The notes beneath the pieces were generated by a model, which ran no database searches, had not been told where the DNA came from, and worked only from the letters and a program-made list of their open reading frames with translations. The position numbers and the translations under genes were made by a program. Below, one piece after another: positions 144-23,800 of a stretch of DNA of 34,651 bases (position 1 is the first letter of the stretch; every line of letters starts with the position of its first letter). The stretch is from positions 1 through 34,651 of the forward strand of contig JAWOGQ010000032.1 of NCBI GenBank assembly GCA_046496745.1, read 5' to 3'. This DNA is from Candidatus Woesearchaeota archaeon. GTDB taxonomy: Archaea; Nanobdellota; Nanobdellia; Woesearchaeales; JACJVW01.

Positions 144-188
144 GTTTATGAAAAGTTGGTTCTTGTTTTAAAATCTATTGATTATAGA

Positions 189-323
189 GAGTTTTTCGAG
201 GAAATAAGCATCATCGAAGGCCAATCAGCCACCCTATATAAGGTGAAGTCCCTTACGGGGATGTCACCTTTTTTTAAAAAGGAATTCAGGCCGAAGTCGA
301 TGCCGGAATTATTCGAAAAACTC
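189..323 (-). mobile_element. MITE copy 1 (135 bp), opposite orientation to copies 2 and 3
   Basis: TIRs GAGTTTTTCGA...TCGAAAAACTC. Perfect 9-bp direct repeat GATTATAGA at 180-188 and 324-332. Reverse complement aligns end to end with 7517-7659 and 13148-13283. Confidence 0.93.
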
Positions 324-366
324 GATTATAGAAAGATAGTTAAATCACTTGATTCCTGTCACTCCT

Positions 367-1590: not shown

Positions 1591-1595
1591 GATAC

Positions 1596-1604
1596 TTTTA
1601 TAAA
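1596..1604 (+). promoter_or_regulatory. TATA box for a leaderless aRF1 transcript
   Basis: TTTTATAAA ends 22 nt before ATG 1627; no Shine-Dalgarno. Confidence 0.6.
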
Positions 1605-1626
1605 CAATACCTTTTTCTCTAATATC

Positions 1627-2727: not shown

Positions 2728-3356
2728 TGCCTGAGGATGCTTATGTATGCTTATTCGGGAGTGAACCGCCATATACCTTTGAGGTGACTTATTCTAATCG
2801 GTTCAAGCCTTTCAATGCAAGGGTCGAGAAAAGAGCAAAACATATCTGTTTTAAGCTGAGCAGGAAATGGGATGGTATAGACCCAGACATAAAGAAAGGG
2901 CTTTACCAGGAGTTGCTGGCAAAACTGTTTAGTGTGGCTGATGATACAAGATACATGGAGCTTTACCGTATATTCGTCCATAACATGCATATCGCTGCCG
3001 ATCGGATCGAAAGCGATCCTTACCTTGTAGAATCCTTCAACAGGGTCAATGAGCGCTATTTCTCTTTTGATATCGAAATGCCTAATCTCTTGTTTGGGAA
3101 GAAAACCAAACGCACATTGGGTTCATACAATTTCCATGCAGATACTCTCACTATAAGCAGTGTGCTTAAGGATGGACCTCAGGAGTTTGTGGATTATGTC
3201 ATGTATCATGAGCTTCTCCATAAATGGCTTAAGTTTGATTACACAAAAAGGAAGGCCAGGCACCATACCTCTGAGTTCAAGAGACTGGAACAACAGTTTG
3301 AGGATTATGAGGGTGTGGAGAAACGCCTGAAAAGATTTCTTAACGGGAGATCCTGA
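2727..3356 (+). CDS. Zincin metalloprotease-like protein (SprT/YgjP-DUF45-like)
   Basis: DYVMYHELLH (HExxH) followed by HHTSEF; LGSY upstream; TGATG stop/start overlap with aRF1. Confidence 0.75.
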   Translation: MPEDAYVCLFGSEPPYTFEVTYSNRFKPFNARVEKRAKHICFKLSRKWDGIDPDIKKGLYQELLAKLFSVADDTRYMELYRIFVHNMHIAADRIESDPYLVESFNRVNERYFSFDIEMPNLLFGKKTKRTLGSYNFHADTLTISSVLKDGPQEFVDYVMYHELLHKWLKFDYTKRKARHHTSEFKRLEQQFEDYEGVEKRLKRFLNGRS

Positions 3357-6300
3357 TCATCCTGAAATTTGCGTTCTTCCATGCTGTGTAGAATAATATC
3401 TTCTTTACTCTCCTGTTCTTGATGTTGTTGAGGTAGTCGTGATAGATTATGTCCCTGTCGTTGTATCCTGTTATTATAACGTTGTTCCTTACATACCTGT
3501 TCTCCTGTTGAGGGTCCTGTGCAAGGATCTGTGCTATTATGACTCCTTTTTTCATCTCTTTTTTCAGCTGTTCTATTGTCATCTCTCTTTTCTTGTATCT
3601 GGCGCCTCTCTTGATTGTCTTTTTCAACAGGTCAAGGTCGTGATGATTCTTGCTGTACTTGACATTGTCTGAGATCTCAACAGTATTGTTGAGATTTGTG
3701 CTTGCGTATGCCATGCGGATAAGGCTGTTGTTTTTTGTGGCAGGTATATCTCTTACTTTCTCCAGGAGAATCTTTTTCTTGAGCCACTTATGGACGTGCA
3801 TGTGCGCGGAAAGAAGGGTCAAGAGCAGGCTTTTCTCGTATGTTATGTTTGTTATCTTTATGAACGGGACTTTAAGGTGCTTGCTTTTTATCTTTTTCAG
3901 GAAAGGGTTTATCGCTTTGTTCAGACTATTGGAAAAAGAACTGATCTTCTCTTTTCCAGTCTGGATGCGTTCTTTGATGGTGTCTCCAAGATAGTATATG
4001 AACTCGTTTTGTCTTGCCCTTCTTTTTATGTCATCCAATAGAAGGTACCAGTACGTGAGTGCCTTGTCAACAATGTTCACATATGCGCTCTGGTTTATTG
4101 TTCCTGCTTTTATCCTTCTTACTTCATATGCGTAGCCGTAGTGGCCTCCGAAAACACCTATTATCGCAACCAGTATTATCATGATGAGGAAAGGCCATAA
4201 CCTGAATTCACTCTCTCTCTTGATCTCACCAGGTTTCTCGATACTTGTATCCACGGGTTCATCCTCTCTTCTTATTATGTTGGTGTCATCTGAACTTTCT
4301 TCTTCTTCCTCGGATATGCAGTCCTTGGTGTGAAACTCTTCTGTTGTGCCTCCCTGGAGGCTTAACCTGTATTGGCCTTTCTCCTTTGGTGTGAAGGTAA
4401 CCAGGCCTTCACTGTCAGTCATAAGAGACATCACTTCTTCATAGGTGTTATTGATTACCCTCTCTACTGTGATATCCTCCTCTTCCAAGGCGCCGCAAGC
4501 CTCCATCCCGTCGATGATAAGGCCCTGGGTCTCGCATGTAGCCCTTGGGACAAGCTTTACTGCCTTTATTGTCATGCTGTCTTCAAGGCAATTCCTGGGA
4601 TAGATTATGATTGCTGATGATTCGCTGTCATCGCAGATTCCGCAATCCGTTCTGCAGGTTTCACAGCTTTCAATATCATTGCATACATCATCTCCGCAAT
4701 AGTTTACATGTATAGTTATCTCCATCCAGTTGCTTAATCCGTACTCGTCTGTGATGGTTATGTTGATCCTGTGTGTCCCACGCTGGTCTGCTGAGGGATA
4801 GCTTCGTATGATCCCGTTATTGCTTATCTGGAATGCTGAAGAGTTTGTCCTGAAACTGATCTGGTCTCCGTCATAATCTGTGGCGTTTATGGTGAGGTTG
4901 AACTGCTCGTAATTATAGGCTTCATATTCTGTCTTATCCACATTGAAGAACGGAGGGTCGTTCACATCGATGATGTTGAAGGTCACGGTCTGGGTTACGT
5001 TATGCACCTGGTCTGATACTGTGAAAATCACGGGGACCTCTCCGCTCACAGTGGGTCCAGGGGTCCAGGAGACTGTCGCAAGAGTATTGTTGATCTTTGT
5101 TATCGAGATATTGTTGTTATCGCTTGTAAAGCTAAGCTGGTCATTGTCCACATCTGATGCTGTTATGTTGAAACGTACTTCTTCTCTTTGTTCAAGAGTC
5201 ATATCCGGGATAGGGTCGAATTCAGGAGGTGTCACTGTGAATGTGATTGTCTCTGAGAATTCCCTGACTTGTTGCCAGCCATGAATGTCCTCTGCATTGA
5301 TGCTGAAATTGACTGTCTGGTTAGCATGGTCTCCCCAGGAACCTGTTATGTTGAATGTGAATTCCTGTCCACCTTGCAGGTCTCCTGTTCCAGGGGTCAT
5401 TTCTACAGGCCCTTCCCATCCTGTGTCCCAGAGGTTGTATCTTATTGTTGGTGCATCGTCTTGTAGAGGGGATGTGTCCTGGAGTGTTACAGTTATCTGC
5501 ATGTCGCCAGTAGAGTAGAGGTTCAGGTTTGTCCATGAGGTTGATACGAAGCTTGGAGGAAGGGTATCTATTATTATCCAGTCAGAGCTTGCATTGCCTA
5601 TGTTTCCTGCTGAATCCTCTCCCCATACATAAACAGACACGTTTCCCTGGGTGAAGACACTCATCTGGGTTTCTGTCCCTGTTTCGACAAACCCCTGGGT
5701 TGTCATCTGGTTGTTTGATGTGTTATAGTAATAACGGGATATGTTTGAGATGTCATTGAAGCCTGACCATGATATGTCAAGGAGTGTTGATGTTGCATAC
5801 GTTGAACCATTCTCGATAGAGACGCTTGCGCTCTGAGGCGAGGGAGGGGTGGTATCATAATAAAGCACATGTGGTGTATCTTCGCTTAGCACCCCGTTCA
5901 TGGTGTTGTTGCACTGGAAATAGAATGTGTTCTCACCTTCCTGGTAGAAGGGGATGTCTGCAGAATGGGTCTGTGTACCTGTGGTGTCCATGCTGTTCTT
6001 TGCATCAAAAGGTGTGTTGTTTGCTGTAGCATACCTGCATTCTGCCGGAAGGGTGGTTTCAAAGCTGATTGTCTGGTCGGTATTGAACCATCCGGTAGGT
6101 GTTATGTTCTGTATCGATACCGACCCCTCGTTGACCCTGAAGGTACGGGTCTCTGATTCTGTGACAAGTGTGGGTGTTAAAAAAGGATCATGTATCTGGA
6201 CCTTCCAGTAATACGTGTCATCAGTAAGGGCCTGGGCGCTTGTCAGGGTGTGGTTCTCCTCTGAATTGGTTATGTTTATCTCCGGGCTTGAGAAATCCGG

Positions 6301-6816
6301 GTCATTGTCTATTATAAGCCTGTGGATGGCAGTACTTCCCTGGTCATAGGAAAAATCCCATATGAACTGGGTCATGTTTGGCTGGATGCTGTCGTTTCCC
6401 GGTGAATGCAAGCGGATGACATATTCCATATCCAAAGCGATGGGTGCGTCGAAAGCTGAAGGTGTAGGTGAAGGGGGTGGATGTATTGTCACGTTTTCAG
6501 GCAAAGCCTGGGTCGTAACAGGGGGATTTGCCCATGCGCGGGAACGGATGATATAATCTGCGTCATCAGGCACAGTCTGGCTGAATGTAATTATTGTCAT
6601 GCCCCATGTTGCATTTATGACTGTTGAGTTCTGGGTCCTGCTCTCGATAAGGGTACCGTTTGGATAGAACAGTTCAGCCTGTACCTCTGCATCCCCTCCT
6701 CCATGGCCTGTGGTGTTGACCATCGCGTTTATTGTTGCAGGAGCTCCAGCTGCAGCTAGGGAGAAGATGCTTAACATGAGCATCAGTACAAGTCCTTTTA
6801 TTGCAGGGTGTCCCAT
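3340..6816 (-). CDS. 1,158-aa single-pass surface protein: Ig/cadherin-like ectodomain, Cys-rich module, TM helix, cytoplasmic C39-like domain
   Basis: Signal peptide; DTTPP/DTLPP Ig linkers; cadherin-like ASDVDND, DVNDPP, ATDYDGD; CGDDVCNDIESCETCRTDCGIC; TM LWPFLIMIILVAIIGVFGG; basic tail with LKVP...VIITGYN...IIYHD...AW. Confidence 0.85.
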   Translation of the reverse strand: MGHPAIKGLVLMLMLSIFSLAAAGAPATINAMVNTTGHGGGDAEVQAELFYPNGTLIESRTQNSTVINATWGMTIITFSQTVPDDADYIIRSRAWANPPVTTQALPENVTIHPPPSPTPSAFDAPIALDMEYVIRLHSPGNDSIQPNMTQFIWDFSYDQGSTAIHRLIIDNDPDFSSPEINITNSEENHTLTSAQALTDDTYYWKVQIHDPFLTPTLVTESETRTFRVNEGSVSIQNITPTGWFNTDQTISFETTLPAECRYATANNTPFDAKNSMDTTGTQTHSADIPFYQEGENTFYFQCNNTMNGVLSEDTPHVLYYDTTPPSPQSASVSIENGSTYATSTLLDISWSGFNDISNISRYYYNTSNNQMTTQGFVETGTETQMSVFTQGNVSVYVWGEDSAGNIGNASSDWIIIDTLPPSFVSTSWTNLNLYSTGDMQITVTLQDTSPLQDDAPTIRYNLWDTGWEGPVEMTPGTGDLQGGQEFTFNITGSWGDHANQTVNFSINAEDIHGWQQVREFSETITFTVTPPEFDPIPDMTLEQREEVRFNITASDVDNDQLSFTSDNNNISITKINNTLATVSWTPGPTVSGEVPVIFTVSDQVHNVTQTVTFNIIDVNDPPFFNVDKTEYEAYNYEQFNLTINATDYDGDQISFRTNSSAFQISNNGIIRSYPSADQRGTHRINITITDEYGLSNWMEITIHVNYCGDDVCNDIESCETCRTDCGICDDSESSAIIIYPRNCLEDSMTIKAVKLVPRATCETQGLIIDGMEACGALEEEDITVERVINNTYEEVMSLMTDSEGLVTFTPKEKGQYRLSLQGGTTEEFHTKDCISEEEEESSDDTNIIRREDEPVDTSIEKPGEIKRESEFRLWPFLIMIILVAIIGVFGGHYGYAYEVRRIKAGTINQSAYVNIVDKALTYWYLLLDDIKRRARQNEFIYYLGDTIKERIQTGKEKISSFSNSLNKAINPFLKKIKSKHLKVPFIKITNITYEKSLLLTLLSAHMHVHKWLKKKILLEKVRDIPATKNNSLIRMAYASTNLNNTVEISDNVKYSKNHHDLDLLKKTIKRGARYKKREMTIEQLKKEMKKGVIIAQILAQDPQQENRYVRNNVIITGYNDRDIIYHDYLNNIKNRRVKKILFYTAWKNANFRMIRISR

Positions 6817-7361
6817 AGTCTTAGGCTGAGTTCTTTTGTAAGCTTGTTCTCTTCCACAGCATGGAGGTCTATAATTGTCTGTATAGGTGAGGTGATATTT
6901 TTGGTTATGATGATGCTTTTTGGTTCCTTGTGAAGGATGATTTTTGTCTGGCCAGGGTCAAGACGGTTCAGGGTTGTTATGATGTTGGGGTTTGCGTAGG
7001 CGTGAAGCTCGTCAGCAATCTCGAATCCCTGGATCTCTTCCAGGGCGCTGTGCAGGCAGAGGGTAGCTTCTTTTTTCAGGATCTTTCTGGCTTCTTCCTT
7101 TGTGCAGTTGATCTCGATTGTACGGTCTTCTTCAATTACATGCTGGTCAGCAATGTGCCTTATGAGTTTGTTTGGGGCGATGAGAAGGTATCGGCCTGTC
7201 TCTCTTTTTGCAATGCCTTTTTGGATGAGCCATTTTGTTATGGTATTGACCCTTCCAATCGATACCTTGCTTTTTTCTGATATAGTGCTCTGGGTGAAAG
7301 AAGGGGTCTGTAAAATAGCATCAAGGATCATCAAGGTCTTTTTGCTGGTGAGTCTTTTCAT
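6798..7361 (-). CDS. Winged-helix DNA-binding protein, AbiEi-like architecture
   Basis: N-terminal wHTH (TQSTISEKSKVSIGRVNTITKWL); C-terminal TSPIQTIIDL resembles AbiEi-type C-domains; overlaps the downstream start by 19 nt. Confidence 0.7.
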   Translation of the reverse strand: MKRLTSKKTLMILDAILQTPSFTQSTISEKSKVSIGRVNTITKWLIQKGIAKRETGRYLLIAPNKLIRHIADQHVIEEDRTIEINCTKEEARKILKKEATLCLHSALEEIQGFEIADELHAYANPNIITTLNRLDPGQTKIILHKEPKSIIITKNITSPIQTIIDLHAVEENKLTKELSLRLWDTLQ

Positions 7362-7516
7362 TTATTCATGAAATTTTCACTTTTTTATAGTTTTTTTAGT
7401 TTTTCCTAAGTTATTTGTTTTTATAATATTAATTTAGTTTTTTGTTTATTTACCTGGATTATACTGCTTTTTTCTTTTTTATTGAAAAGAGAATTTAAAA
7501 TTCTTTCGTTTTCTTG

Positions 7517-7659
7517 GAGTTTTTCGAATAATTCCGGCATCGACTTCGGCCTGATTTCTTTTTTAAAAAGAGGTGACATCCCCGTAAGGGACTTCCCCCT
7601 TTCACCTTATATAGAGATACTAATCGGCCTTCGATGATGCTTATTTTTTCGAAAAACTC
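7517..7659 (+). mobile_element. MITE copy 2 (143 bp)
   Basis: Same TIRs. Perfect 9-bp TSD GTTTTCTTG at 7508-7516 and 7660-7668. Overlaps the 3' end of the regulator gene. Confidence 0.93.
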
Positions 7660-8273
7660 GTTTTCTTGCCTTTATACAGGACTTTCTTTTCAAAAGGGCA
7701 TTCTTTCAGAAAATCACTCAGGCCTCTTGTTACCTGGGAGTCCCAGTTGCTTAGAAGGAGTTCCACCTCATCGATGGGGATATTGGTCTTCAGGGCGATC
7801 TCATGCGTTGTGAAGTATTTGTCGGGGTTGTTGTCCAGGAAATCGATAATTTTCTTGGTCTTTTTGGAGTCGACCCAGAGGCCCTGGAAGAAGCGCTGCA
7901 GCCTGGATTTTTGTGGGCTGTTGCGTGTTATGCAAAGGACGTTTGATTTGATTATCCTTTGCTTGTTTCCTTCATAGATGACCTTGGTCTCGATGAGACC
8001 TGCTTCCTCCAGCCGTTTCAGGTTCTCATGAATGGTGGAGGAGGAATGGCCGATCTCTTTTTTCAGGGAGGTGGCATTGTGATTATCGTTTCCTGAGAGT
8101 GTTATCAGTATCTTGCGGGGGATATCCTGGGTCCAGCTTTTTTCTATCTGGTATTTGGTCTCTGAGGGGATTGTGGTGGGAAGAATCTCTATTATCTTTT
8201 TTGTGCGCTGGTGATAATATACGCAGATTTCCATGGACGGTTTTCTTTGGATTTCATATATTAATCTTTCCAT
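7641..8273 (-). CDS. ArsR-like winged-helix transcriptional regulator, probably with a second HTH
   Basis: RKILITL...ATSLKKEIGHSSSTIHENLKRLEEAGLI; second helix pair TTHEIALKTNIPIDEVELLL; divergent from the fla operon. Confidence 0.8.
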   Translation of the reverse strand: MERLIYEIQRKPSMEICVYYHQRTKKIIEILPTTIPSETKYQIEKSWTQDIPRKILITLSGNDNHNATSLKKEIGHSSSTIHENLKRLEEAGLIETKVIYEGNKQRIIKSNVLCITRNSPQKSRLQRFFQGLWVDSKKTKKIIDFLDNNPDKYFTTHEIALKTNIPIDEVELLLSNWDSQVTRGLSDFLKECPFEKKVLYKGKKTSFSKK

Positions 8274-8317
8274 TTTTCGGTAATACCGAAAAACTGAAAA
8301 ACCGAAATATTTATATA
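8273..8317 (+). promoter_or_regulatory. Operator-like palindrome plus BRE/TATA of the fla operon
   Basis: TTTTTCGGTA-A-TACCGAAAAA at 8273-8293; ACCGAAATA-TTTATATA at 8301-8317. Confidence 0.65.
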
Positions 8318-8388
8318 TATTTTAGTAGGGGAATACATATATAGCAGATTACATAAAGCACTCTTAATATACAAGAGGGTATACTAAA

Positions 8389-8850
8389 ATGGGTTTTGGA
8401 ACTATCGCTGCAAATATCATAATGTTTATCTCGGTATTGATACTTTCGACTGCCGTGCTTGGTGTTTTCAAATCAACCATAGACAGTTCGGTCGGTTCTT
8501 TCCAGTCGCGTTCTGATGAGATATCCAATTCGATAAGGACAGATATCACTATACAAAGTGCAGTCTATGACAATGTGAGCGATGAGATTGTTGTCACGCT
8601 GAAGAATACTGGTGAGACTGTGCTTGACCCTCAATATATGGATGTCTATGTTGATGGTTTCTTTATCCCCAGGAATGCTGCAAACCGGACAGTCCGTGTC
8701 CTTCCGTCAACCGATACCCGTAATTCAGGGCTTTTTGACCCGCGGGAAGTAGTTGAGATCGTAGTAGGACAGGAGCTTGATGAGAGCCATCATTATGTGG
8801 CTGTGGCTACCCAGTACGGGACAAGGACAGAGGAATTGATAACCCAGTAA
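8389..8850 (+). CDS. Archaellum accessory/stator protein, FlaF/FlaG (ArlF/ArlG) family
   Basis: N-terminal TM MGFGTIAANIIMFI; RTDITI, LKNTG, VYVDG, VATQYG; directly upstream of flaH. F versus G cannot be resolved by eye. Confidence 0.8.
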   Translation: MGFGTIAANIIMFISVLILSTAVLGVFKSTIDSSVGSFQSRSDEISNSIRTDITIQSAVYDNVSDEIVVTLKNTGETVLDPQYMDVYVDGFFIPRNAANRTVRVLPSTDTRNSGLFDPREVVEIVVGQELDESHHYVAVATQYGTRTEELITQ

Positions 8851-8851
8851 A

Positions 8852-9595
8852 ATGGTCTTAAACCAGGAATATCTAGAGGAGAAGGAAAGGGAAGCGCACG
8901 CGTATTACCATGATATAAACCTGCAGCGTGATGAGCTTTCCATGAATCTTGGAGGGGGTATTCCGAAAAAATCACTTATGCTTGCCGTGGGAGAGGATGG
9001 GGCTGGTAAAAGTATACTTGCCCAACGCTTGTTGTATAGTTTTGTGCGTAACAAGGCTACGGTGAGTTATATCAGTTCTGAGCTAAATACCATCTCTTTT
9101 GTTGAGCAGATGGAGTCAATGGATTATGATATCAAGTATGACCTTCTGAATGGAAGGGTCCTGTTCATACCCATGTTTCCTGTCATGGGAAGTACTACGC
9201 CTTCGAATGATTTCATGACCAGGCTTTTGAAGACAAAGGAGATATTTGAGAAGGATATCATAATCTTTGATACCTTGTCTTTTCTGATGATAAGGAATAA
9301 TATCACCCAGGATGAATGCTATAACCTTATCAACATGCTCAAACGGATGACATCCCTTGGGAAGACCATACTTTTCATGGTGGACCCGAACCATCTTAAT
9401 GATACGATGCTTTCACTTTTGAAGTCTGTGTCTGATATATTTGTCAATCTCGCGATCCGTTCTTTTGCAGGAAATGTGGTTAGGGTTATAAATATCGTCA
9501 GGTTCAAGAGGCCACAGGGTGAGTTCCAGGCAAATATACCATTCAGGGTTGAGCCAGGAAAAGGACTTGCAATAGAGATCGCAAGCCTTGATTAA
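8852..9595 (+). CDS. flaH: Archaellum RecA/KaiC-like ATP-binding protein FlaH (ArlH)
   Basis: Walker A GEDGAGKS, Walker B IIIFDTLS, C-terminal FRVEPGKGLAIEIAS; adjacent to flaI. Confidence 0.92.
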   Translation: MVLNQEYLEEKEREAHAYYHDINLQRDELSMNLGGGIPKKSLMLAVGEDGAGKSILAQRLLYSFVRNKATVSYISSELNTISFVEQMESMDYDIKYDLLNGRVLFIPMFPVMGSTTPSNDFMTRLLKTKEIFEKDIIIFDTLSFLMIRNNITQDECYNLINMLKRMTSLGKTILFMVDPNHLNDTMLSLLKSVSDIFVNLAIRSFAGNVVRVINIVRFKRPQGEFQANIPFRVEPGKGLAIEIASLD

Positions 9596-9608
9596 AAAGA
9601 GGTAGAAC

Positions 9609-11273
9609 ATGCGCGGAAAGATAACTGAAGAGCAAAAGACTTTTGAGAGCGCACAGAGGAATTATCCTCATTTCCGGAAATATGTACAGGAGATAACAGC
9701 TTCACTTGGAACTCCTAATTATTATCTGGATTTCGATTTTTTCAAGTATTATCGTGAAGAGTTCATGAACCAGATCGATAAGGAAGGGGCTAATCTTATC
9801 TATCCGGTGGATGACCTATTGTTTATCCATATCCTCAAATTCCCTGGAGAGGCATATCAATACATAGTGATTGAGCCTGAACTTGATGATGAGAGCAAAA
9901 GGCTGTATGAAAAGGTTCTTGATAAGATGATAGATCTTGCATCACAGTTGCCTACCCCTGATCATACTACTGATATAAAACCTGTTCTCATGGAGTTGCT
10001 TGATAAGTGTGTCGAACCCGGAAGGCCAAAACGGCTGGTTGGAGTGAATCTTGGTTCAAAGCTTCCTGTCACGCAGGACCAGTACAGGATGCTCAAGTAT
10101 CATCTCCTGAGGGAGCGTGTTGGGTATTCAAAGCTTGAGCCGCTTTTCAAGGACCCTTACCTGGAAGATATCCATTGTGTGGGTGTGGGCAATCTTGCTG
10201 CTGTCCACAAGATTTTCGGCGTAGTGAGGATGAGCCTGAAGTTTCCGACAGATGTTGAGCTTGATAAGTATATCCTGGACGCTTCCGAGCGTGTGGAGAG
10301 GCCGGTGAGTGACAGCAGGCCTGTGGTAGACGCGATAATGCCAGACGGGTCCAGGGTTAACTATATCTATGGCCGGGAGATCTCCCGGGAAGGTTCAAGT
10401 TTCACCATAAGGAAATTCGCGGATGTGCCTGTGAGCATAGCTGATATCGTCTATTATCAAACCCTCACCCCAAAGATTGCAGCGTACCTCTGGCTATGCC
10501 TGGAGAATGGGATGAACTGCTTTGTCTGCGGAGAGACTGCTTCGGGTAAGACGACTACGCTTAATGCGATGAGCGCGTTCATAAAGCCTGATGCAAAGAT
10601 CTATACTGTAGAGAACACTGCAGAGGTGACAATGCCTCATGACATATGGCAGCATCTTGTGACGCGTGAGGCTGGAAAGGATTCTGATGTGACTTTGTTC
10701 ACTCTGCTTATTGCAGCCCTGAGGTCGCGTCCGAATTACATAATAGTTGGTGAGATAAGGGGTGAAGAGGGAAATATCGCTTTCCAGGCAATGCAGACAG
10801 GGCACCCATGCCTTTCCACATTCCACGCCGGTTCTGTGCACTCTATGATCCAGCGTCTTACAGGACATCCTATCAATGTTCCTATCGCCTTTATCGATAA
10901 CCTGAATGTGGTTCTTATCCAGCAGGCAGTTACTGTGAACAACAGGCTGGTCAGGCGTGTTACTTCCATCTCAGAGATTGAGAGGTATTATGATGCGGAG
11001 AATAAGGTCATAACCCGGAAGGTGTTCCTCTGGGATTCAAAGAAGGATGAACATAGGTTTACTGGTTATTACAACAGTTATATCCTGGAAAAGAAGATTG
11101 CGTCGCAATTGGGATACCAGGACCCAAAGGAAATATACGAGGAGCTTGAGCTTCGGGAGAAGATAATCCAGAAGATTGTAGATCGGAAGATCCTCAATTA
11201 TTACAAGGTGTTTGACATCATCAAGAAATTTTCGATAGGTGGTGTGGAGTCTCTACCGTTCGAGCTTGATTGA
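9609..11273 (+). CDS. flaI: Archaellum motor ATPase FlaI (ArlI)
   Basis: DPYLEDI, FTIRKF, GETASGKTT, RPNYIIVGEIRG, AMQTGH, STFHA. Confidence 0.95.
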   Translation: MRGKITEEQKTFESAQRNYPHFRKYVQEITASLGTPNYYLDFDFFKYYREEFMNQIDKEGANLIYPVDDLLFIHILKFPGEAYQYIVIEPELDDESKRLYEKVLDKMIDLASQLPTPDHTTDIKPVLMELLDKCVEPGRPKRLVGVNLGSKLPVTQDQYRMLKYHLLRERVGYSKLEPLFKDPYLEDIHCVGVGNLAAVHKIFGVVRMSLKFPTDVELDKYILDASERVERPVSDSRPVVDAIMPDGSRVNYIYGREISREGSSFTIRKFADVPVSIADIVYYQTLTPKIAAYLWLCLENGMNCFVCGETASGKTTTLNAMSAFIKPDAKIYTVENTAEVTMPHDIWQHLVTREAGKDSDVTLFTLLIAALRSRPNYIIVGEIRGEEGNIAFQAMQTGHPCLSTFHAGSVHSMIQRLTGHPINVPIAFIDNLNVVLIQQAVTVNNRLVRRVTSISEIERYYDAENKVITRKVFLWDSKKDEHRFTGYYNSYILEKKIASQLGYQDPKEIYEELELREKIIQKIVDRKILNYYKVFDIIKKFSIGGVESLPFELD

Positions 11274-11275
11274 TA

Positions 11276-12946
11276 ATGGAGAGATACATAAAGAGGGCGG
11301 GATTCAAGTCCATCAGTCAATTCGCAGTCAAGGTAGTCATGCCTCTGCTTATACTCTCGCTTGTACTTTTTTTCTCTATCCTTCTTTTCCTTCCACTACC
11401 CTTTTATGCTGCATATGTTTTCTTGTTCCTTGGTTTTACAGCAATATTCATGGTACCTTACATGCTTTATGAGCGGAAGCGTATCAATATAAACGAAAAC
11501 ATCCATCTTTTCATAACATATTGCGGAACAATCTCAACAATCGACCTTGACCGTAAGACTTTTTTCAGCAAAATCGCAGAGAATGATGATTACGGAGAGA
11601 TCTCAAAGCTATCAAACAAGATCCTGTACTTTGCTAAGGCATGGAACCTGGGATTTGCACAGACCGCAAGGAAGATGGGAAGGTTCTCGGCCTCAAGAAT
11701 ATTTGCTGATTTCCTGGACAGGTTTGCTGCAGCCCTTGATTTCGGGCAGGAGCTGGAGACCTTCATGCGTGATGAACAGAGTGCTGTGCTTGATGATTAT
11801 TCTACAATGTACAAGGAATCTCTCAATAATATTGGCATGTTAAGGGAGGCATTTATCGCAGTCACAATATCTCTTGCTTTTGGCATAAGCACTGCGTTGC
11901 TCCTTCCTTTACTGATGGGCGTCTCCATTGTTGTTGCGATACAGTGGTCTTTACTTATACTGTTCTTTATTGATATGTGCCTGCTAGTCTTCGTGAATGT
12001 ATTCATCCCTAATGATGATTTATGCCATAACATGAAGGTTAAGGATGCGGGTACACGGAAGCTTCATAAATGGAGCATGATACTTATCCCAATCTCTCTC
12101 AATATTGCGGCCTTCCTTTTTTTCATGGGGTGGTTCACTTTTCTATTCAATATTGCCATTGCAATAACCCCTTTGATGTATCTTGGTTTCCTTGCAGTGC
12201 AGGTTGAAAATACAGTATTCAAGAGGGACAAGGAATTTCCTTCATTCATAAGAGCGCTTGGGGCGACAATCTATGCAAGACAGGGTGGAGTCCCTTCGAG
12301 TCTTGAGGCTTTGCAGGTGCATGATTTCGGGATACTGCAGGATATCGTGAGCAATCTTTACAAGCGCCTGAAGATAGGTTCTGATAAGCTCAAGAGCTGG
12401 TATTATTTTGCGGGTGAGTCTGGTTCAAAGCTCATAAGCCGTTTTGTGACAATATTCCATGAGTCAATATATCTTGGAGGGCATGCTCAGAAGATTGGTG
12501 AGATGATAAGCGATAATTTCCAGGATCTCTTGTCTTTGAGAAAATTGAGGCAGCAACAGGCATCGTCTTTGAAAGGGGCTTTGTATGGGGCTCTCATAGG
12601 GTTTATCGCTACTATCTATATCTCTGTTTCAATCACAAATCTTCTTACTCAGATGTTCTCTGAAGCATGGGGGGATACACTTTCCCAGGGTTCCATGTCG
12701 GGGCTTATATCATCAATCATACCAAGCATGCCTGAGGTCGATACAGCCCGCCTGAGCCTTTATCTTGGTCTTACAGTGCTCTTGCATTCATTTGTGTCTT
12801 CCCTTGTAATCAAGATAGTGGATGGTGGGAACAGGTTTGCAATGCTTTTTGATTTCATTGCCATGGTCTGGATAGGAGCTGTGCTTTCCTGGCTGGTGCC
12901 ATTGATAGCATCAAACATGTTTGCTGGCAGTATGGGTCTTGGTTAA
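11276..12946 (+). CDS. flaJ: Archaellum platform membrane protein FlaJ (ArlJ)
   Basis: Polytopic ~556-aa protein with two GspF-like cytoplasmic domains (FADFLDRFA; RDKEFPSFIRALG); follows flaI. Confidence 0.92.
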   Translation: MERYIKRAGFKSISQFAVKVVMPLLILSLVLFFSILLFLPLPFYAAYVFLFLGFTAIFMVPYMLYERKRININENIHLFITYCGTISTIDLDRKTFFSKIAENDDYGEISKLSNKILYFAKAWNLGFAQTARKMGRFSASRIFADFLDRFAAALDFGQELETFMRDEQSAVLDDYSTMYKESLNNIGMLREAFIAVTISLAFGISTALLLPLLMGVSIVVAIQWSLLILFFIDMCLLVFVNVFIPNDDLCHNMKVKDAGTRKLHKWSMILIPISLNIAAFLFFMGWFTFLFNIAIAITPLMYLGFLAVQVENTVFKRDKEFPSFIRALGATIYARQGGVPSSLEALQVHDFGILQDIVSNLYKRLKIGSDKLKSWYYFAGESGSKLISRFVTIFHESIYLGGHAQKIGEMISDNFQDLLSLRKLRQQQASSLKGALYGALIGFIATIYISVSITNLLTQMFSEAWGDTLSQGSMSGLISSIIPSMPEVDTARLSLYLGLTVLLHSFVSSLVIKIVDGGNRFAMLFDFIAMVWIGAVLSWLVPLIASNMFAGSMGLG

Positions 12947-12959
12947 ACCTGAGAAAAGG

Positions 12960-13048
12960 TGGGCCCGCGGAGATTTGAACTCCGGACCACTCGATCTCTG
13001 ATGAAAGCATTATCAGTCGAGCACTCCACCAGGCTAAGCTACGGGCCC
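12960..13048 (-). tRNA. tRNA-Ile(GAT) with a 15-nt intron at position 37/38 (12996-13010)
   Basis: Acceptor GGGCCCG/CGGGCCC-A; anticodon arm CTCGA-CTGATA^A-TCGAG; T-loop GTTCAAATC; intron ATGCTTTCATCAGAG forms a bulge-helix-bulge; upstream GAAAAC-TTTAAAAA. Confidence 0.95.
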
Positions 13049-13147
13049 TTGGAATTCAAAAATAGGGAGCGATTTTTAAAGTTTTCTTATTTTAGTTGTT
13101 ATATTATGTAAGCAAATCCATGTGATTAAGTCTGGATAAAAGCAATG

Positions 13148-13283
13148 GAGTTTTTCGAATAATTCCGGCATCGACCTGTTTTCTTTTTTAAAAAAGGTGA
13201 CACGTTGCACACAACACCTCCCCCTGTCAACTTATATAGGGTGGCTGATTGGCCTTCGATGATGCTTATTTCCTCGAAAACTC
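13148..13283 (+). mobile_element. MITE copy 3 (136 bp)
   Basis: Left TIR GAGTTTTTCGA; right TIR TCGAAAACTC (one A short). Perfect 9-bp TSD AAAGCAATG at 13139-13147 and 13284-13292. Confidence 0.92.
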
Positions 13284-13328
13284 AAAGCAATGGAAATGTT
13301 TATATATATATTATCTTGGAGAAGAAGC

Positions 13329-14084
13329 ATGGATCTTGCCATAATCTCACTGATTTTCAGGATACCGACAATATTTCTTGCTATCCTTATGGGTTATCTG
13401 GCTTATCAGTTATTCGTCCTGACAAAGGGTGCTACCAAGGGCTGGATGTATCTTTCGATCGGAGGTTTCTCTTTGTTCATGTGGGCTGCATCAATCGTGC
13501 TTTTTAGTGTTATTTTCCCTCATGAGACCCTCAGGTACTTGACTGGAGCTTTCTTTCTTTTCATGATGGCCATATTCCAGCCATTGGCTTATACAAAGCT
13601 TGCTGAATCTTTTCATGCCAGGCTTCCACGATGGTGGAATGTCCCAACTTTGCTTGCTCTCATAGGCTTGGTGGTATTCACGCTCATGGCTTATGGTAGC
13701 ATGGGCAGTTTTGGCTTGCAAAACTTCCTTACTGTTGCTCATTTCACTCTTGCAATATGCATGCTTTTTGCTTTGCTTCCAAGCTACAGGCTGATGAAGG
13801 AAACAAAGAAATCACCCTGGATATTCTCTTTCCTGTTCTGCCTGGTAGTGGCTCTTGGGATGAATGTAGGTCAATACTATAACAATTGCTGCAATGAGAC
13901 AAGCGAGTTCTCGGAAAATGAGGTATGCGCCTATGACCTGGATTATCTTGGTATCTATGAGGCTCCTTGCAATGCAGGTGTGCTTAGTGTTGCAAGGTTC
14001 TATCAATTGTTCCTGCTAGTTGGGATAATACTTGGAGATGTTGCTTTTTTCAAGCTCTGGCGCGGTCTCAAAGCATTTAAATAG
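13329..14084 (+). CDS. Hypothetical ~7-TM membrane protein with a Cys-rich loop
   Basis: About seven hydrophobic segments. Start set at ATG 13329 (MDLAII), downstream of TTTATATA at 13299. Confidence 0.75.
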   Translation: MDLAIISLIFRIPTIFLAILMGYLAYQLFVLTKGATKGWMYLSIGGFSLFMWAASIVLFSVIFPHETLRYLTGAFFLFMMAIFQPLAYTKLAESFHARLPRWWNVPTLLALIGLVVFTLMAYGSMGSFGLQNFLTVAHFTLAICMLFALLPSYRLMKETKKSPWIFSFLFCLVVALGMNVGQYYNNCCNETSEFSENEVCAYDLDYLGIYEAPCNAGVLSVARFYQLFLLVGIILGDVAFFKLWRGLKAFK

Positions 14085-14105
14085 TAATATCTTATTCACT
14101 TTCTC

Positions 14106-16739
14106 ATGGATCTCATAAATGTAGCACGGAAATGGCAAGAGCGCTGGGAAAAAGATTCAATATTCAAGGTAACAATTTCTGATAAACCAAAATACTATTG
14201 CCTGGAGATGTACCCTTATCCTTCAGGAAAACTTCACATGGGGCATGTGCGTAATTATTCTATAGGTGATTGTTTCGCGCGCTTCAAGCGCATGAAGGGT
14301 TTCAATGTATTGTATCCTATGGGATATGACTCATTCGGGCTCCCTGCGGAAAATGCAGCGATAAAGAATAATTCACATCCAAGGCCGTGGACGGAGAAGA
14401 CCTCTAAGGATATGATGGAGCAGCAAAAAAGGATGGGCCTCTCATATGACTGGGACCGGATGGTCACGAGTATTGATCCTGAATATCATAAATGGAACCA
14501 GTGGTTATTCATCCAGCTCTATAAGAAAGGGCTTGCTTACAGGAAAAAGGCACCTATCAACTGGTGCCCTAAGTGCGATACTGTTCTTGCGAACGAGCAG
14601 GTAGAGGACGGTAAATGCTGGAGATGTGATTCAGAGGTGGAAGAACGTCATCTTGAGCAATGGTTCCTTAAGATAACTGATTATGCCGAAGAATTGCTGC
14701 GTGATATTGATACCCTGGAGGGATGGCCTGAGAAAGTAAAGACGATGCAAAGGAACTGGATCGGAAAGAGCCATGGTACCAGTATCAATTTTGACATTGT
14801 TGATGTGGATGGAAATAAGATAGATTCTGTATCCACTTTCACTACGAGACCTGATACCCTGTATGGTGTCACATTCCTGGCTCTTGCACTTGATTTTCCC
14901 AGGATAAAGGAATGGAACAATTCTGAAGCAGTCCAGGATTTTATCAAGGAGCAGAAGAAAAGGAGCACTTACGAGCGGACAAGCGCGAAGGACAAGAAAG
15001 GGATCTTTCTTGGGGTCTATGCTATAAATCCTGTGACAGAAGAGAAATGTCCTGTCTATGTGACAGATTACGCTTTGATGGAGTACGGAACAGGTGCTGT
15101 CATGGGTGTGCCTGCACATGATCAAAGGGACTTTGAATTTGCAAAGAAGCATGATCTTCCTATAAGGATTGTTGTTCAGCCAGAGGAAGAATCCCTTGAG
15201 GAGGCTTATGTGGGAGATGGGCCTCTTGTGAATTCAGGAGAATTTGACGGGATGAACAATCGCGAGGCAATAGAGGCGATTTCTGAGCATCTTGAGGAAA
15301 AGGGCCTGGGTGAAAGGACAGTCCAGTACAAGTTACGTGACTGGCTTATCTCCAGGCAAAGATACTGGGGAACACCTATCCCTTTCGTATATTGCGATTC
15401 CTGTGGTCTTGTGCCTGATGAGAACCTTCCGGTAGAACTTCCGGAGGATGTAAAATTTACAGGGGAGGGTAATCCACTTGCTACAAGCCCAACATTCATG
15501 AATGCTGCCTGTCCTAATTGCGGGGGTAAGGCTCGCAGGGAAACAGATACGATGGATACTTTCATTGATAGCTCATGGTATTATTTCCGTTTCACGTCTC
15601 CTGGTGCGCAGGAGATGGTGGACAAGGAATCTGCGGATTACTGGATGCCTGTTGACCAGTATATAGGTGGGGTTGAGCATGCCATATTGCACCTGTTATA
15701 TGCAAGGTTCATAACCAAGTGCATGAGAGATCTTGGTCTTACTACAATCTCTGAGCCTTTCAAGCGCTTGCTTACTCAGGGGATGGTCCTGATGGATGGT
15801 GCTAAGATGAGCAAGTCACTGGGAAACGTGGTTGACCCAGAGGAATACCTTGCAAGATTCGGGCCTGATACGTGCAGGGTTTTCATCCTGTTTGCGGCAC
15901 TTCCTGAAAAGGAGCTTGACTGGAATGATAAGGGCGTTGAAGCTGCCCACAGGTTCCTGCAAAGAGTCATACGTCTTTCTGAAGAACCTGTGTATCATGA
16001 GGAAAGGACTGCTGATGACCATTATATACAGAGCATATTGAACCGGACCATAGCAAAAGTTACTGAATATATAGAGGATTTCAAGCTTAGCCTTGCTTTG
16101 GGTTCATTGATGGAGCTTGTTACAGAATTCACGAAGTACCGGGAAGGTTCGGTGAATAAGGATCTTTACTGGGAAGGTTTTGCAACCCTTATCCGTCTGC
16201 TTTCACCTTTCGCGCCACATGTGTGCGAAGAACTGAACGAGCAGATTGGAGGAGAGGGTTATATCTCAATGTCTGATTGGCCGAAGGTTGAGGAAAGCAG
16301 GATCGATCCTGTGGCAGAAGAGAAAGTGAAGCTGGCACGAACAGTCATGGCAGACATCTCTTCTGTGCTTGAGCTTGCAAAGCTGGATACACCTCAGGAG
16401 ATAATCCTTATTGTCAGTCCGGAATGGAAGTACGATCTTTTTGATAATGTGCGCATTGCCCTGGGTGAGACGCATAATGCGTCTGAGATCATGAAAAAGG
16501 TCATGATACCTGAATACGGCAAGGAGGTCGCAAAGATTGTTCCAAGGCTTGTCAAGGATCCAAGCAAGATCCCTGAAGTCGTCCTGGACCAGGCAAGCGA
16601 GGAAGAGATACTCATGACTCTTGTCCCGAGGATCACTTCACAATACAAAGCTAATGTTCAGGTGATAAGGGCAGAGGATTCCGGGGAGAACAAGGCAGGC
16701 CAGGCCCAACCTGGAAAACCAGCAATAATCGTCAAGTGA
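14106..16739 (+). CDS. leuS: Leucine--tRNA ligase
   Basis: [51 protein letters not shown]. Confidence 0.98.
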
Positions 16740-20293: not shown

Positions 20294-20860
20294 TTGGAAC
20301 AGCAAAAAGAGTTAACATATTTGAATCCTTCTGAGGTCAGCACTTTATTAGATGGCATCCCGCGTACTCGTGACAAGGTTCTTTTGTCTTTGCTCTATGA
20401 GCTTGGCTGCAGTTTAAGGGAGCTTGTTAATATCCGTGTCCGGGATGTTTCCTTTGAGGAGCATGGCATTGCAATCCCTGGTTCTCATACAAAAAGGTGC
20501 GAGCGGTTCTGCCTTGTCTCTTCAAGGACCCTTGATCTTTTGCGAAGCTATCTTGACGAGGAGAATCTTCTTAAAAAGAGGCTTTCCTATATATTCTCGT
20601 CAAGCCATGGCGGCCATATGACTGTAAGAAGGATAACCCAGCTTATCCATAATATCCTGAACGATGCTGGTTTCGAAGACAGGGCAAACCCGCAGGTACT
20701 CAAGTATTCACATATAATAAACGCTTACCAGGCAAATGTGCCTATTTCAGCAATCCAGAAGCAAGTTGGACTTACAAAGCACCGGCTCGTATCAATCCTT
20801 CTTGAGGTTGATACTGAAGCGGGTATCGAGCATTACGAGAAATTTCTGGCGCATGAGTAA
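20294..20860 (+). CDS. Tyrosine recombinase (Xer/integrase) catalytic-fold protein, apparently inactive
   Basis: YLNPSEV..LL, RDKVLLSLLYELGCSLRELVNIRVRDV, TKRCER, YIF, MTVRRITQLI, NPQVLKYSH, IQKQVG. TTG start is uncertain. Confidence 0.85.
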   Translation: MEQQKELTYLNPSEVSTLLDGIPRTRDKVLLSLLYELGCSLRELVNIRVRDVSFEEHGIAIPGSHTKRCERFCLVSSRTLDLLRSYLDEENLLKKRLSYIFSSSHGGHMTVRRITQLIHNILNDAGFEDRANPQVLKYSHIINAYQANVPISAIQKQVGLTKHRLVSILLEVDTEAGIEHYEKFLAHE

Positions 20861-23800
20861 CATAGTAAAAAGAGGGATGGTGTATATCTTGTTCTTGCTA
20901 GTTGTTGCTCTAGTGCATGGGCAGGAGGTCTCTGTTGATCTTGATACTGGCTCTGGCTATGCGAAAGGTGATAGCGGGGATATCCTTGCATCAACCTCTA
21001 TCAATGGAATAAAGGTCTTGTCAATCCCGATGGAGCTTGAGGTCACATCTCCTGATGGGTTTGTTGAAAGATTCAACTTCAGCAACAAGTTTGATGGCAA
21101 TCAAAAACTGACTTATGAGTTTGAGCACTCCGGAGAGTATGTGATGGAGGCCATCGCAGAGGTCAGTGGTGTTGAGTATTCTGAGAAGAAGACAGTAGAG
21201 GTTGCAAAGCCTGCAATCGATTTCAATCTTTCAGTCGATACAGTCCTTTCAGGTGTCAAGGGAAATATAACACTGAACGGAGGAAAGGTTGATATCCTGC
21301 TTTTTGATCCATCTTCAAAACAGGTGACCCCTCTTTGTAATTTTGAATGCACTAATTGTTCTTTCTCTTGTGATACTGATTTCTCCAAACAGGCTTATAC
21401 ACTTATCGCAAAGGCGACAGTCAATGGGATCCAGTATATGAGGACTCAGCCTTTATACCTTTCAGACAAGGAGTACATGGGGGAATGTGCAGATGATCTT
21501 TCTGGAAAGGTCGGTTCCCAGGTGAGGTTTCCTTTCTCAGGTGACTCTTTTGAGATAATAGGCCCTAATCAATTCTATGAGAGGAGCGGGATGCCTTTCT
21601 TTACCCCGCCTCACGAGGGGTTGTATGATATCTTTGCAATAGGTGATGATATATGTCTTGCAAGGGTTAATGTTTCAAGGCAGGATGATACGCTTTATGT
21701 TGATGAGTTCCCTTTTGACCTGGTCTACCATCCGGAATACGGGACAGCTTTCATCCGCGCAAAAATAAATCTGACCAACCATTCAAAGGTCCAGTTCAGC
21801 GGACTGGAAGATCATATAGTAAGCGTTTTCGATCTTGATGCTGGAAAAGAGCTCGATCCATCAGCTATCGAACCTGAAGGAGAAGAGCTTTTGCTTGGTG
21901 TAGATCTGAAGCGTTATGGCGGAAAGACCTTGCTTGCAGAACCTTTTGATTATGAAAGGGATGAGAGGGATCATGGCGCTTTGATCTCTATCGCTTCCAA
22001 ATATTCTGACTTTTATATCCCTCTGGATGATCATGTCTATGATGTTTACTCTGAGACGTATGAGGATCCTGTGTTGTATGATGATTTTTTCATCGGCAAA
22101 CCTGATGATTATGTTGTTTCGGTTCTTGAGCCTCTGGAAGAGACCATGTCTTTTGGCAATGAGACCTATAATGTGAGCCTGGACTGCGATTCTTTTGTTG
22201 TAGAGTCTTCTGATCCTGGTGAGTTCTATGTGAACGGGAAAGCTAAAGGAATAGTCAATGATACCCTTCAGGTTGAAGGGTGCGGTGACATGGTGCTTCG
22301 TTACGAGGGTGAGGCTTTTGATATTATGATTGATCGTAATATCACGGTTCAAGCTGACCTTCCTGATTACACGATAGTTGGAAACCAATCATTCTCATTT
22401 GAGGTTAGCCCTGAAGCTGACAGTTATAGTTATCGGATTCTAGATCTTTCAGGCAATGAGCATGATCTTGGAGAGAGCAATGTGTCAAGCAAGAATCTTG
22501 ACTTGCCTGCTGGAAGTTGGTATCTGCAGACAATGCTGCATTATGGTGAGAAGAACCGTTCATTTATCGAGAGCATCGATGTCTATGAAGGTGATAGTTT
22601 CTTCTTTGGCCCAGGGAAGAATGTCTCTATTACATCTGGAGAGACTGCTCTTCTGAAACACAGTCTTGTCAATGAGCTTTCTGCAGCAAGGAGTTTCAGG
22701 ATAAAGGTTCCTGAGGAGGTTACAGCTTTTATTGATGACGGGGATGACATGCGGGAACTTGAGTATGATGGAAGCTACCTGACCGGAGAGCTTGAGCCTT
22801 ATGAGAAACGCATAATCTTTTTTGAGATAACTCCTGTGAATGACACCTCTTTTAATATAGAAGTTTCATCGGAAGAACAGAGTGTGGAGAGGACCGACAG
22901 GGTTTTCATAGAATCATATCGTGATCTTTTTGCTGATCTTGATCTCTACCAACTCACCTTCGAGAACGGGACGATAGTAAGCAGGATAAGGAACAATAAT
23001 GACCGGGCAGAGAGTTTTGACCTGGAATTGAACATATTCGGTTCTTCTAATATAACACTAAAAGCGAATGCCACAGTACCTGCTGATTCAGAGATCACAA
23101 TCGAAAAGGATATCTTCATGAAACGTGGTCTTGTGAAGGCAGGGCTAATGGATGGAAAAGTGCCTTTCCATGACACTGACCTTTCAAATAATAATCGTTC
23201 ACTGGTATTTGGGAAGCCAGACATACCTTCAGCAGATTTTGTATACCGCATACCTGTATCTGAAAGGGAAGGGAGAGAACAGTATGATTACATGGTAAGG
23301 GTCAATCTTGATCCTTCAGGTATCGATCTTTCAAGCATAGGTTTTGTTTATCTTGACCATGAAGAGAGCTTCCTTTCAAAAAGCCCATCTTTTAGGGTTC
23401 TTGATACAAGGCCTTTCTCCCTGATATTCCCAATATCAAGGCTTCCTGCCAACAGGGAGAATACTGTATATCTTTACTACAATCACAGCGATACCCAGGA
23501 TACTGAATCTTTCATGAAGGAACATAACAGCAAGGTTGAATGGGATTCAGAATCATTCATCGACAATACTGATACCAATACGATCGGAAGGTGGGTCCCT
23601 GATTACGGTGTTTCAGGCTATCATGGGATGGATTACCTGCATGACCTTGACATGGGGAAGGGTGAGAAGTTTGTAGTCTATCCATTTGATTACAAGGAAG
23701 CAGGTTATGAGTTATATTATCATAGTCCTGTGGATTCGAGCTTTTCAAGGTCAACTAAATGCACTGTGAATCACAAGCATGGTACGGATACATTCAGTAT

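Follow-up and report, generated by a model that had tools for sequence, protein, structure and literature searches.

The stretch of DNA analysed here (the window) is the entire contig C93, 34,651 nt in length, from a draft archaeal genome (G000) of 1.33 Mb in 107 contigs, with 42.7% G+C and rated as 96% complete. The archaeal content of the window includes aRF1, two archaellins, proteins similar to FlaH, FlaI and FlaJ, and an archaeal prepilin-peptidase domain. Within it are three copies of a MITE of 130-155 nt, each lying between 9-bp direct duplications. An earlier note on this DNA had placed a TATA-like box 6-7 nt beyond the duplication, four boxes in all for the three copies, and each copy and each box was found where it had been described. 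In what follows the flanks are read outward from each end of the MITE, and offsets are counted from the first duplicated base.

Copy 3 (13148-13283, plus strand) is 136 nt long, with the ends GAGTTTTTCGAA...TCGAAAACTC. The duplications flanking it, AAAGCAATG at 13139-13147 and 13284-13292, have no mismatch between left and right. Beyond the right duplication there is a promoter module on the plus strand (13293-13306), consisting of a BRE-like GAAA, a spacer TG and the TATA box TTTATATA at 13299-13306. The ATG of a leaderless gene (13329-14084, plus strand) is 30 nt from the first T of the box, which is the modal spacing genome-wide, and the right duplication (13284-13292) occupies promoter positions -45 to -37 of this gene. 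A tRNA gene (12960-13048, minus strand; Rfam tRNA, 54 bits) has the promoter box GAAAAC-TTTAAAAA at about 13073-13087 on the minus strand, and no MITE is inserted there.

Copy 1 (189-323, minus strand; 135 nt) lies between 9-bp duplications of GATTATAGA (180-188 and 324-332) and has a box on both sides. On one side the maf promoter box (166-179, minus strand) reads AATAGA followed by TTTTAAAA (173-166); the ATG of maf (Maf family) at 143 on the minus strand is 30 nt from the box, at offset 45, and this box is in the frame common to the insertions described below. On the other side the box of an amidohydrolase gene (333-347, plus strand) reads AAGATAG followed by TTAAATCA (340-347). Here the ATG is at 367, i.e. 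offset 43, which is 2 nt outside the common frame.

Copy 2 (7517-7659, plus strand; 143 nt) is flanked by 9-bp duplications of GTTTTCTTG (7508-7516 and 7660-7668). Its box (7492-7507, minus strand) is GAAA-GA-ATTTTAAAT, i.e. GAAAGAA-TTTTAAAT (about 7501-7492), and faces a wHTH gene (6798-7361, minus strand) at about 135 nt from the ATG at 7361. The right end of copy 2 supplies the final codons and the stop of another wHTH ORF (7641-8273, minus strand).

The MITE family and its relatives in the genus

BLAST with the three window copies identified 50 MITE loci in the genome, of 76-100% identity and 116-185 nt. The size between the ends is about 130-185 nt, too short for a transposase gene. The ends are GAGTTTTTCGAA...TTCGAAAAACTC, with the form 5'-GAG...CTC-3'; the outermost 12 nt of these terminal inverted repeats are the same at both ends, and imperfect pairing extends to about 35-40 nt. 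Target duplications were scored in 47 of the 50 copies, two having lost one recognisable end and one being at a contig edge. At unshifted ends 25 of the 47 have perfect 9-bp duplications and a further eight have duplications with a single mismatch. The duplicated 9-mers differ between sites and have no common sequence: individual positions carry at most 0.3 bit, with the exception of the last base adjoining the BRE, and the only trend is a weak bias towards A. The repeat is a classical MITE, being short, with inverted repeats, 9-bp duplications and dispersed copies.

Full-length copies are confined to the genus, i.e. G000 and the congeners G001 and G002. Nine genomes were matched among 41 relatives (G000 included), and the six others have short matches only, of 21-66 nt. 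Of 401 genomes of the order, four have the pattern of the MITE ends, one with a single match and the others belonging to the genus itself.

The MITE is polymorphic for presence and absence, with copies in G001 and G002 as well as orthologous sites that are empty in the congeners. Contigs G001:C23 and G002:C19 are syntenic with positions 1-14500 of the window, at 71-91% identity. The site of copy 3 is empty in G001, where a single 9-mer AAATCAATG is followed by caaatgTTTATATC and by an ATG at the same distance. Similarly, the site of copy 2 is empty in G002, with a single 9-mer GATTTTTTG between conserved flanks. Copy 1 is absent from the orthologous place in G001, although there are 27 extra nt there and the site is not clean. 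Since the empty sites already have the promoter, the promoters are older than the insertions. We considered whether the copy-2 site of G001 might carry an excision footprint, and rejected this; there are 18 nt in place of the 9 expected, with weak likeness to two duplications.

We also sought the transposase that would have mobilised these elements. Models of ISLre2 (NF033529 and PF06782) gave no match in G000-G002, a weak blank given that the controls also matched nowhere, and the models of IS256 (PF00872) and ISKra4 (NF033572) likewise matched nothing in these three genomes. Matches to DDE_Tnp_1, rve and DDE_3 occur only in G001 or G002, and none has MITE ends. In G000, pairs of MITE ends separated by 300-4000 nt either enclose ordinary genes or belong to two distinct MITEs. 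Self-BLAST of G000 revealed no IS-like multicopy repeat, only strain overlaps together with a 1.4-kb repeat that has no long ORFs. The 21-nt end of the MITE had no match in metagenome contigs and three in genome contigs, of which one is the contig of G001 and the other two fall by chance in coding DNA of bacteria. A degenerate pattern of the ends gave at least 119 single chance matches in metagenomes, and none of the 80 loci listed has homology to the MITE. Neither G000-G002 nor the set of 401 genomes from the order yielded an autonomous partner with MITE ends, and nor did two scans of metagenomes; the drafts are incomplete. Four of the 301 genomes of the order that were searched have elements of ISKra4 type. 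The one complete copy examined, that of G026, was rejected as a potential parent; it makes a 9-bp duplication, but its ends (GGGTGCATG...) are unrelated and the offset has no box.

Position of the insertions relative to the BRE and TATA box

The flanks were searched with a TATA consensus fixed beforehand (TTTAWATA, with at most one mismatch). Among 91 non-redundant flanks the consensus is found 23 times at offset 15 and eight times at offset 17, the latter being the TATATA register, while the remaining offsets between 0 and 51 have 0-3 occurrences each. Offset 15 places the box 6 nt past the duplication. The controls were crude non-coding positions of the same genome. With at most one mismatch 23/47 insertions have the box at this offset, compared with 1417/129458 controls (1.1%, p = 1e-32). 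An exact match is present in 9/47 insertions and 212/129458 controls (0.16%, p = 1e-16), and allowing two mismatches the figures are 31/47 and 6624/129458 (5.1%, p = 6e-29).

A weight matrix that covers the BRE as well was built from positions -37 to -23 of 211 promoters with no MITE nearby, a site being taken to pass if it scored above the tenth percentile of the training set. At the exact frame adjoining the duplication 41 of 46 insertions in G000 pass, compared with 1741/45592 controls (3.8%, p = 8e-53); one strain-duplicate row, C67, is left out of this count. The pass is on the left only in 23 insertions, on the right only in 15 and on both sides in three, and five have the motif at the exact frame on neither side. 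Note that one or two rows related by descent or strain duplication were removed, depending on the count, and that the rest are not fully independent.

The MITE is found in both orientations relative to the promoter, with the left end proximal in 23 cases and the right end in 17 (p = 0.43).

A sequence logo was made from 38 sites aligned on the duplication only, omitting two redundant rows and the sites that lack a TATA-like box at offsets 13-17. It reads C (53%), R (95%), A (68%), A (76%), A (100%), NN, TTTAWAWA, and further on there is A (79%) at offset 45 and G (61%) at offset 47, corresponding to a start codon. The AAA block we take to be the BRE, from the positions of BRE and TATA box in archaeal promoters. 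There is no mirror motif on the far side of the duplication in the 38-site logo, so the signal is one-sided. In leaderless genes the ATG is 36 nt past the duplication, and at offset 43-47 an ATG that begins an ORF of 50 aa or more is present in 19/38 of the box-side flanks, compared with 5/38 of the opposite flanks; these five are divergent promoter pairs. By the same criterion 567 of 20000 random non-coding positions have such an ATG (2.8%). In several of the remaining box-side flanks there is a GGAGG or GGTGA together with an ATG (offset 55-59); these belong to short-leadered genes. The insertion is therefore anchored to the BRE and TATA box and not to the ATG.

The same arrangement is found in promoters that have no MITE. 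In 1205 crude genes the TATA consensus occurs 153 times at -30 from the ATG, with 48 at -31, 27 at -29 and 55 at -28, while outside -32 to -27 there are at most 19 genes at any offset. This sharp peak indicates that genes of this genome are as a rule transcribed without a leader, from a TATA box at -30 to -23. In archaeal promoters the start of transcription is expected some 23-27 nt beyond the box. Leaderless transcripts with such a TATA spacing are also described for some other archaea, in the part of PMC4983044 relevant here. The 211 MITE-free promoters have the same logo in the same frame as the targets, with a BRE that is somewhat weaker. In promoter coordinates the duplication covers -45 to -37, the BRE-like RAAA -36 to -33 and the TATA box -30 to -23, and the gap of 6-7 nt between duplication and TATA box is itself conserved as RAAA plus 2 nt, matching the native BRE. 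The target consensus is tighter than that of generic promoters at -33 and -36; an A is found at -33 in 38/38 targets, compared with 70% of the 211 generic promoters (about 148; p = 8e-6). By both motif and geometry the boxes beside the MITEs can be firmly assigned as putative promoters belonging to the genome itself.

Might the box instead belong to the MITE, or might the MITE create or bring the promoter? The copies do have an internal T6A5 tract that scores as BRE/TATA-like in both directions. However, the box is outside the duplication and on either side of the element (23:17), its sequence varies from site to site, and the same spacing between box and ATG is found at empty orthologous sites and in the 211 promoters that have no MITE. 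We regard a promoter carried by the element as scarcely credible.

A further explanation for the pattern is that insertion was random or AT-biased, followed by selection for those copies that spared genes and promoters. About 88% of the genome is coding (by crude gene calls), so that most random insertions would be lost, and the intergenic DNA that remains is AT-rich. Yet any position upstream of the BRE would be expected to suffice for survival, whereas a single offset is used (23 occurrences against 0-3 elsewhere, and 41/46 against 3.8% in the matrix count). Moreover, in 5/38 insertions the MITE cuts the 3' end of an upstream ORF of 80 aa or more, and in five cases, one of which is also among the cut ORFs, a long upstream ORF stops 0-5 nt before the MITE. 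Even insertions that damage the preceding gene at its 3' end hold to the frame, showing that the position follows the promoter and not the avoidance of genes. Selection among random insertions is thus very unlikely to account for the data.

The congeners show the same preference. Among 16 unique full copies in G001 and G002, 8/16 pass the matrix at the exact frame (p = 4e-8) and 10/16 do so within 2 nt. G002 has a MITE of its own (G002:C19:20093-20228) in the intergenic region of copy 3, inserted upstream of the tRNA box GAAAAC-TTTAAAAA at the same offset. Three copies in G002 (L024, L025 and L026) have perfect duplications with no box at all; either the offset rule is not absolute, or a subfamily behaves differently.

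In a draft assembly false junctions might be created by repeats at contig ends or by mixtures of strains. Self-BLAST of G000 does reveal overlaps between contig ends at 92-98% identity, and a few copies, on C9, C49 and C88, have chimeric flanks without duplications. Most copies, however, are inside contigs and have perfect duplications, the pattern recurs in two other genomes, and both boundaries of copy 3 are crossed by contigs from two independent DNA runs. An artefact of assembly or binning is exceedingly improbable as the source of the pattern. In contigs from four DNA runs there is no joint that skips a MITE, but the contigs break at the repeat and are thus silent on polymorphism. No RNA run was found to contain the region.

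The proposal of the earlier note that insertion is targeted to promoters at a fixed offset is thus borne out by the genome-wide alignment of flanks (41/46 against 3.8% of controls), by the congeners and by the empty sites. So too is its suggestion that position is conserved and not the sequence of the duplication, the 9-mers being unrelated while the BRE/TATA frame is fixed across the genome. The caveats attached to it are largely removed: the sample has grown from three to about 46, and AT-richness is covered by the positional profile and the non-coding controls. As for survivor bias, it could not produce single-base precision.

Reading of the target

We consider it very probable that the MITE is a non-autonomous DNA transposon whose integration, with a stagger of 9 bp, takes place at a single fixed point of the promoter. 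The proximal joint would be made between -37 and -36, just where the BRE begins on its upstream side and 6 bp short of the TATA box. With this geometry the insertion should leave the core promoter intact, from BRE and TATA box to the start, and the duplication would restore positions -45 to -37 on the promoter side. DNA further upstream would be pushed off by about 145 bp, and this sometimes includes the last codons of the preceding gene.

The choice of target suggests that some component recognises the BRE/TATA module on one of its sides and sets the active sites next to it. A transpososome of two-fold symmetry that reads its target directly usually prefers palindromic sites with the duplication at their centre. 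Where the determinant lies on one side only and at a fixed distance, this is the mark of a separate reader, such as TnsD in Tn7 or TFIIIB in Ty3.

The reader could, as the earlier note proposed, be the host's own initiation complex, with the transposase docking on a promoter bound by TBP and TFB and integrating at its upstream edge. TBP is encoded in G000. TFB is encoded in the relatives G001-G003, and searches of the G000 assembly that included tblastn gave no match to it; this absence is most likely a gap in the assembly. Alternatively a DNA-binding module of the transposase itself might read C-RAAA-NN-TTTAWAWA without any host factor, in the manner of TnsD at attTn7. The occupancy of sites grows with the motif score (about 1%, 2.5% and 4%), and at equal motif strength 5/98 sites without a downstream gene start are occupied, compared with 15/363 with one, so strong sites are used as often where there is no gene start, which would be expected of direct reading. 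TBP and TFB are also able to bind cryptic boxes, however, so sites that have no gene are compatible with them too. One copy in G001 is nested within the remnant of a dead transposase gene, 6 nt from TTTAAATG, where there is no AAA block as BRE, and this again points to direct reading, as does the single-base precision seen in 41/46 insertions. The tighter consensus of the targets at -33 and -36 could mean that these bases are read specifically.

Against this, the target logo mirrors the degeneracy of the native promoters position by position, in the W positions, the free spacer and the BRE, and a symmetric transpososome that read the sequence itself would usually give a palindromic target where the signal is strictly one-sided. 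We favour docking on the TBP/TFB-bound promoter, to which we would assign close to an even chance; reading by the transposase itself is a serious contender, at somewhat below even. The extra stringency of the targets falls on positions of the BRE, and we have counted this for the version with a host factor.

Comparison with other elements that target promoters

The closest bacterial precedent, already cited in the earlier note, is as it was given there, with insertion at a fixed distance upstream of promoters; for the TnGBS and ISLre2 elements the published study (PMC3942029) gives this distance as 15-17 bp upstream of the -35 box. The same source places the TnGBS ICEs and ISLre2 in p-MULT 3, with Mutator-like DDE transposases of Firmicutes that act at sigma-A promoters with a 3-bp spread; they make direct repeats of 8-9 bp and have inverted repeats of 18-39 bp that end in C (PMC3942029, in part). 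The core promoter is left intact, and a host transcription-initiation factor has been proposed as the guide (PMC3942029, in the sections drawn on). The MITE resembles these elements in the length of the duplication, the length of the repeats, the terminal base and the targeting upstream of promoters. It differs in using archaeal promoters with BRE and TATA box, in being joined at the edge of the BRE and in having a modal frame of a single base.

TnGBS and ISLre2 insert in one orientation, whereas the MITE does so in both. According to the relevant portion of PMC3942029, orientation in the p-MULT elements is fixed where the repeats are asymmetric and free where they are nearly perfect. The ISKra4 group (p-MULT 4) and ISLbu1, which insert upstream of promoters, have nearly perfect inverted repeats and use both orientations (same source, in part), and the MITE is like them in combining identical 12-nt tips with a free orientation (23:17). 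A signature motif of the p-MULT transposases, between domains N1 and N2, has been linked to promoter targeting (PMC3942029, in part). Membership of the MITE in the p-MULT families is not shown, these being defined by their transposase, which no family model matched in G000-G002. ISH6 (p-MULT 2, mostly archaeal) is described in the portion of PMC3942029 considered here as preferring AT-rich targets, with a suggested bias to promoters. It duplicates its AT-rich target (AANATNTT, 8 bp), whereas the motif at the MITE is outside the duplication and on one side of it.

There are parallels also in eukaryotes. Ty3 of yeast and TRE5-A of Dictyostelium integrate at a fixed distance from promoters by way of TFIIIB, which contains TBP and in which Brf1 is a relative of TFB and TFIIB. 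The likeness extends to the targeting of tRNA genes, in that one tRNA promoter was hit by the MITE in G002. Ty3 and TRE5-A differ in being eukaryotic retroelements with integrases, in using only Pol III genes, and in that contact with the initiation factor has been demonstrated. In Tn7, TnsD recognises attTn7 from one side of the insertion point at a fixed distance, and the recognised gene is spared. Unlike the MITE, Tn7 uses only one site in each genome and inserts there in one orientation; it duplicates 5 bp and works through a machinery of several proteins.

Insertion upstream of promoters as a safe haven is known in bacteria (TnGBS, ISLre2 and the ISKra4 group) and in eukaryotes (Ty3, TRE5-A and Tf1). 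We rate the present case as adding the Archaea to these, with a frame that is sharper than in the bacterial cases. In the openly searchable full-text literature, including a 2024 review of MITEs (PMC10969869), we found no report of an archaeal transposon or MITE inserted at a fixed distance from a BRE and TATA box. The same solution to targeting would exist around three different transcription machineries, and in this uncultured lineage sequence data alone suffice to reveal the rule.

For a genome that has no transcriptome, the flanks provide about 40 independent, motif-free pointers to promoters and to true start codons. The mode of insertion also suggests a gene-sparing tool for integration in archaeal genetics. 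Once the transposase has been recovered, there would be a system in which to ask how an element of DDE type reads a promoter of the TBP/TFB kind. If docking on TBP and TFB is correct, this would be the first transposition in Archaea to be guided by the initiation complex, parallel to Ty3 with TFIIIB and to the proposed but unproven role of the sigma-A holoenzyme for TnGBS. The MITEs would then be a natural record, to a single base, of where TBP and TFB are positioned in an uncultured archaeon of small genome.

Orthologous sites of copy 2

The second MITE copy of the window (7517-7659, forward strand) lies at the end of a gene. An open reading frame encoding a wHTH/MarR-like protein (7641-8273, reverse strand) terminates within the element, and its original C-terminal codons and stop were replaced through the insertion. 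At the same site the window has the arrangement duplication-MITE-duplication, and the congeneric genome G002 has a single 9-mer. The other congener, G001, has 18 T-rich nucleotides, GGTTTATTTTACTTTTTG, at the locus orthologous to window 7508-7668 (L040, on contig C23). These 18 nucleotides may be an excision footprint that retains both duplications, although the likeness is weak.

Copy 1 and the mixture of strains

The draft genome to which the window belongs (G000) is a mixture of strains, since many of its contig ends overlap at 92-98% identity. One further overlap involves the window itself, where positions 1-713 match 2608-3328 of contig C67 at 95% identity. The MITE of contig C67 shares its site and orientation with copy 1 (189-323, reverse strand), but it is a different variant; it is 143 nt in length and resembles copy 2 (99%) more closely than copy 1 (87%). 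Either two strains are present and their copies have undergone conversion, or one promoter pair has been struck twice independently.

A segment of 1.4 kb is present in three copies in the same draft (C35:11321-12753, C72:1-1433 and C60:1-1447), at 72-94% identity. The single copy inspected, that of C35, lacks a long open reading frame. The segment is not an IS; possible identities are an RNA gene and a region in which strains are mixed.

The host and other genes

The order as sampled comprises at least 136 families, with genomes of 0.6-2.7 Mb, and in this it seems to resemble a small-genome (DPANN-type) order. MCR alpha has no match in G000. The gene for TBP is located on contig C77 of this genome. 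No TFB gene was found in the assembly, neither with the Pfam TFIIB model (0 matches) nor in a tblastn search with the congeneric TFB (0 matches). One TFB gene, encoding 310-335 aa, is present in each of G001, G002 and the relative G003, and G001 has two extra TFB-like genes of ~270 aa. The missing TFB is probably an assembly gap.

Within the window, Rfam identifies a tRNA gene at 12960-13048 on the reverse strand (54 bits), though it is missing from the ARAGORN output. At 89 nt, it probably has either an intron or an extended variable arm. On the forward strand, crude gene calls give an open reading frame of ~4030 codons (20736-32828) that contains 35-nt repeats (family D1).

Related elements and the interior of the MITE

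One archaeon of the order carries a complete ISKra4-family IS of 1738 bp (L043, G026:C184, 925-2662), with 26-nt inverted repeats and the 9-bp duplication CGTACCCAC. The account of this family in PMC3942029 draws mainly on bacteria. At the locus L178 (G001:C3:1-480) a MITE end adjoins a 5′-truncated DDE_Tnp_1 transposase reading frame beginning MDRGYD; here the MITE has landed in a different, unrelated IS, at a point 6 nt from TTTAAATG. The element of ~155 nt at L058 (G002:C14:3557-3712) has the tips of the MITE and an unrelated interior, and is a second MITE family with the same ends. It also adjoins GAAATT-ATTAAAAA.

The MITE itself contains an internal T6A5 tract, ~30-45 nt from its left end (e.g. 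window 7553-7569). No nested insertion adjoining this tract was seen in the MITE copies. Nearly all of 48 copies give the score of a native BRE/TATA for this tract on each strand, and the MITE may carry a weak, bidirectional promoter at this position.
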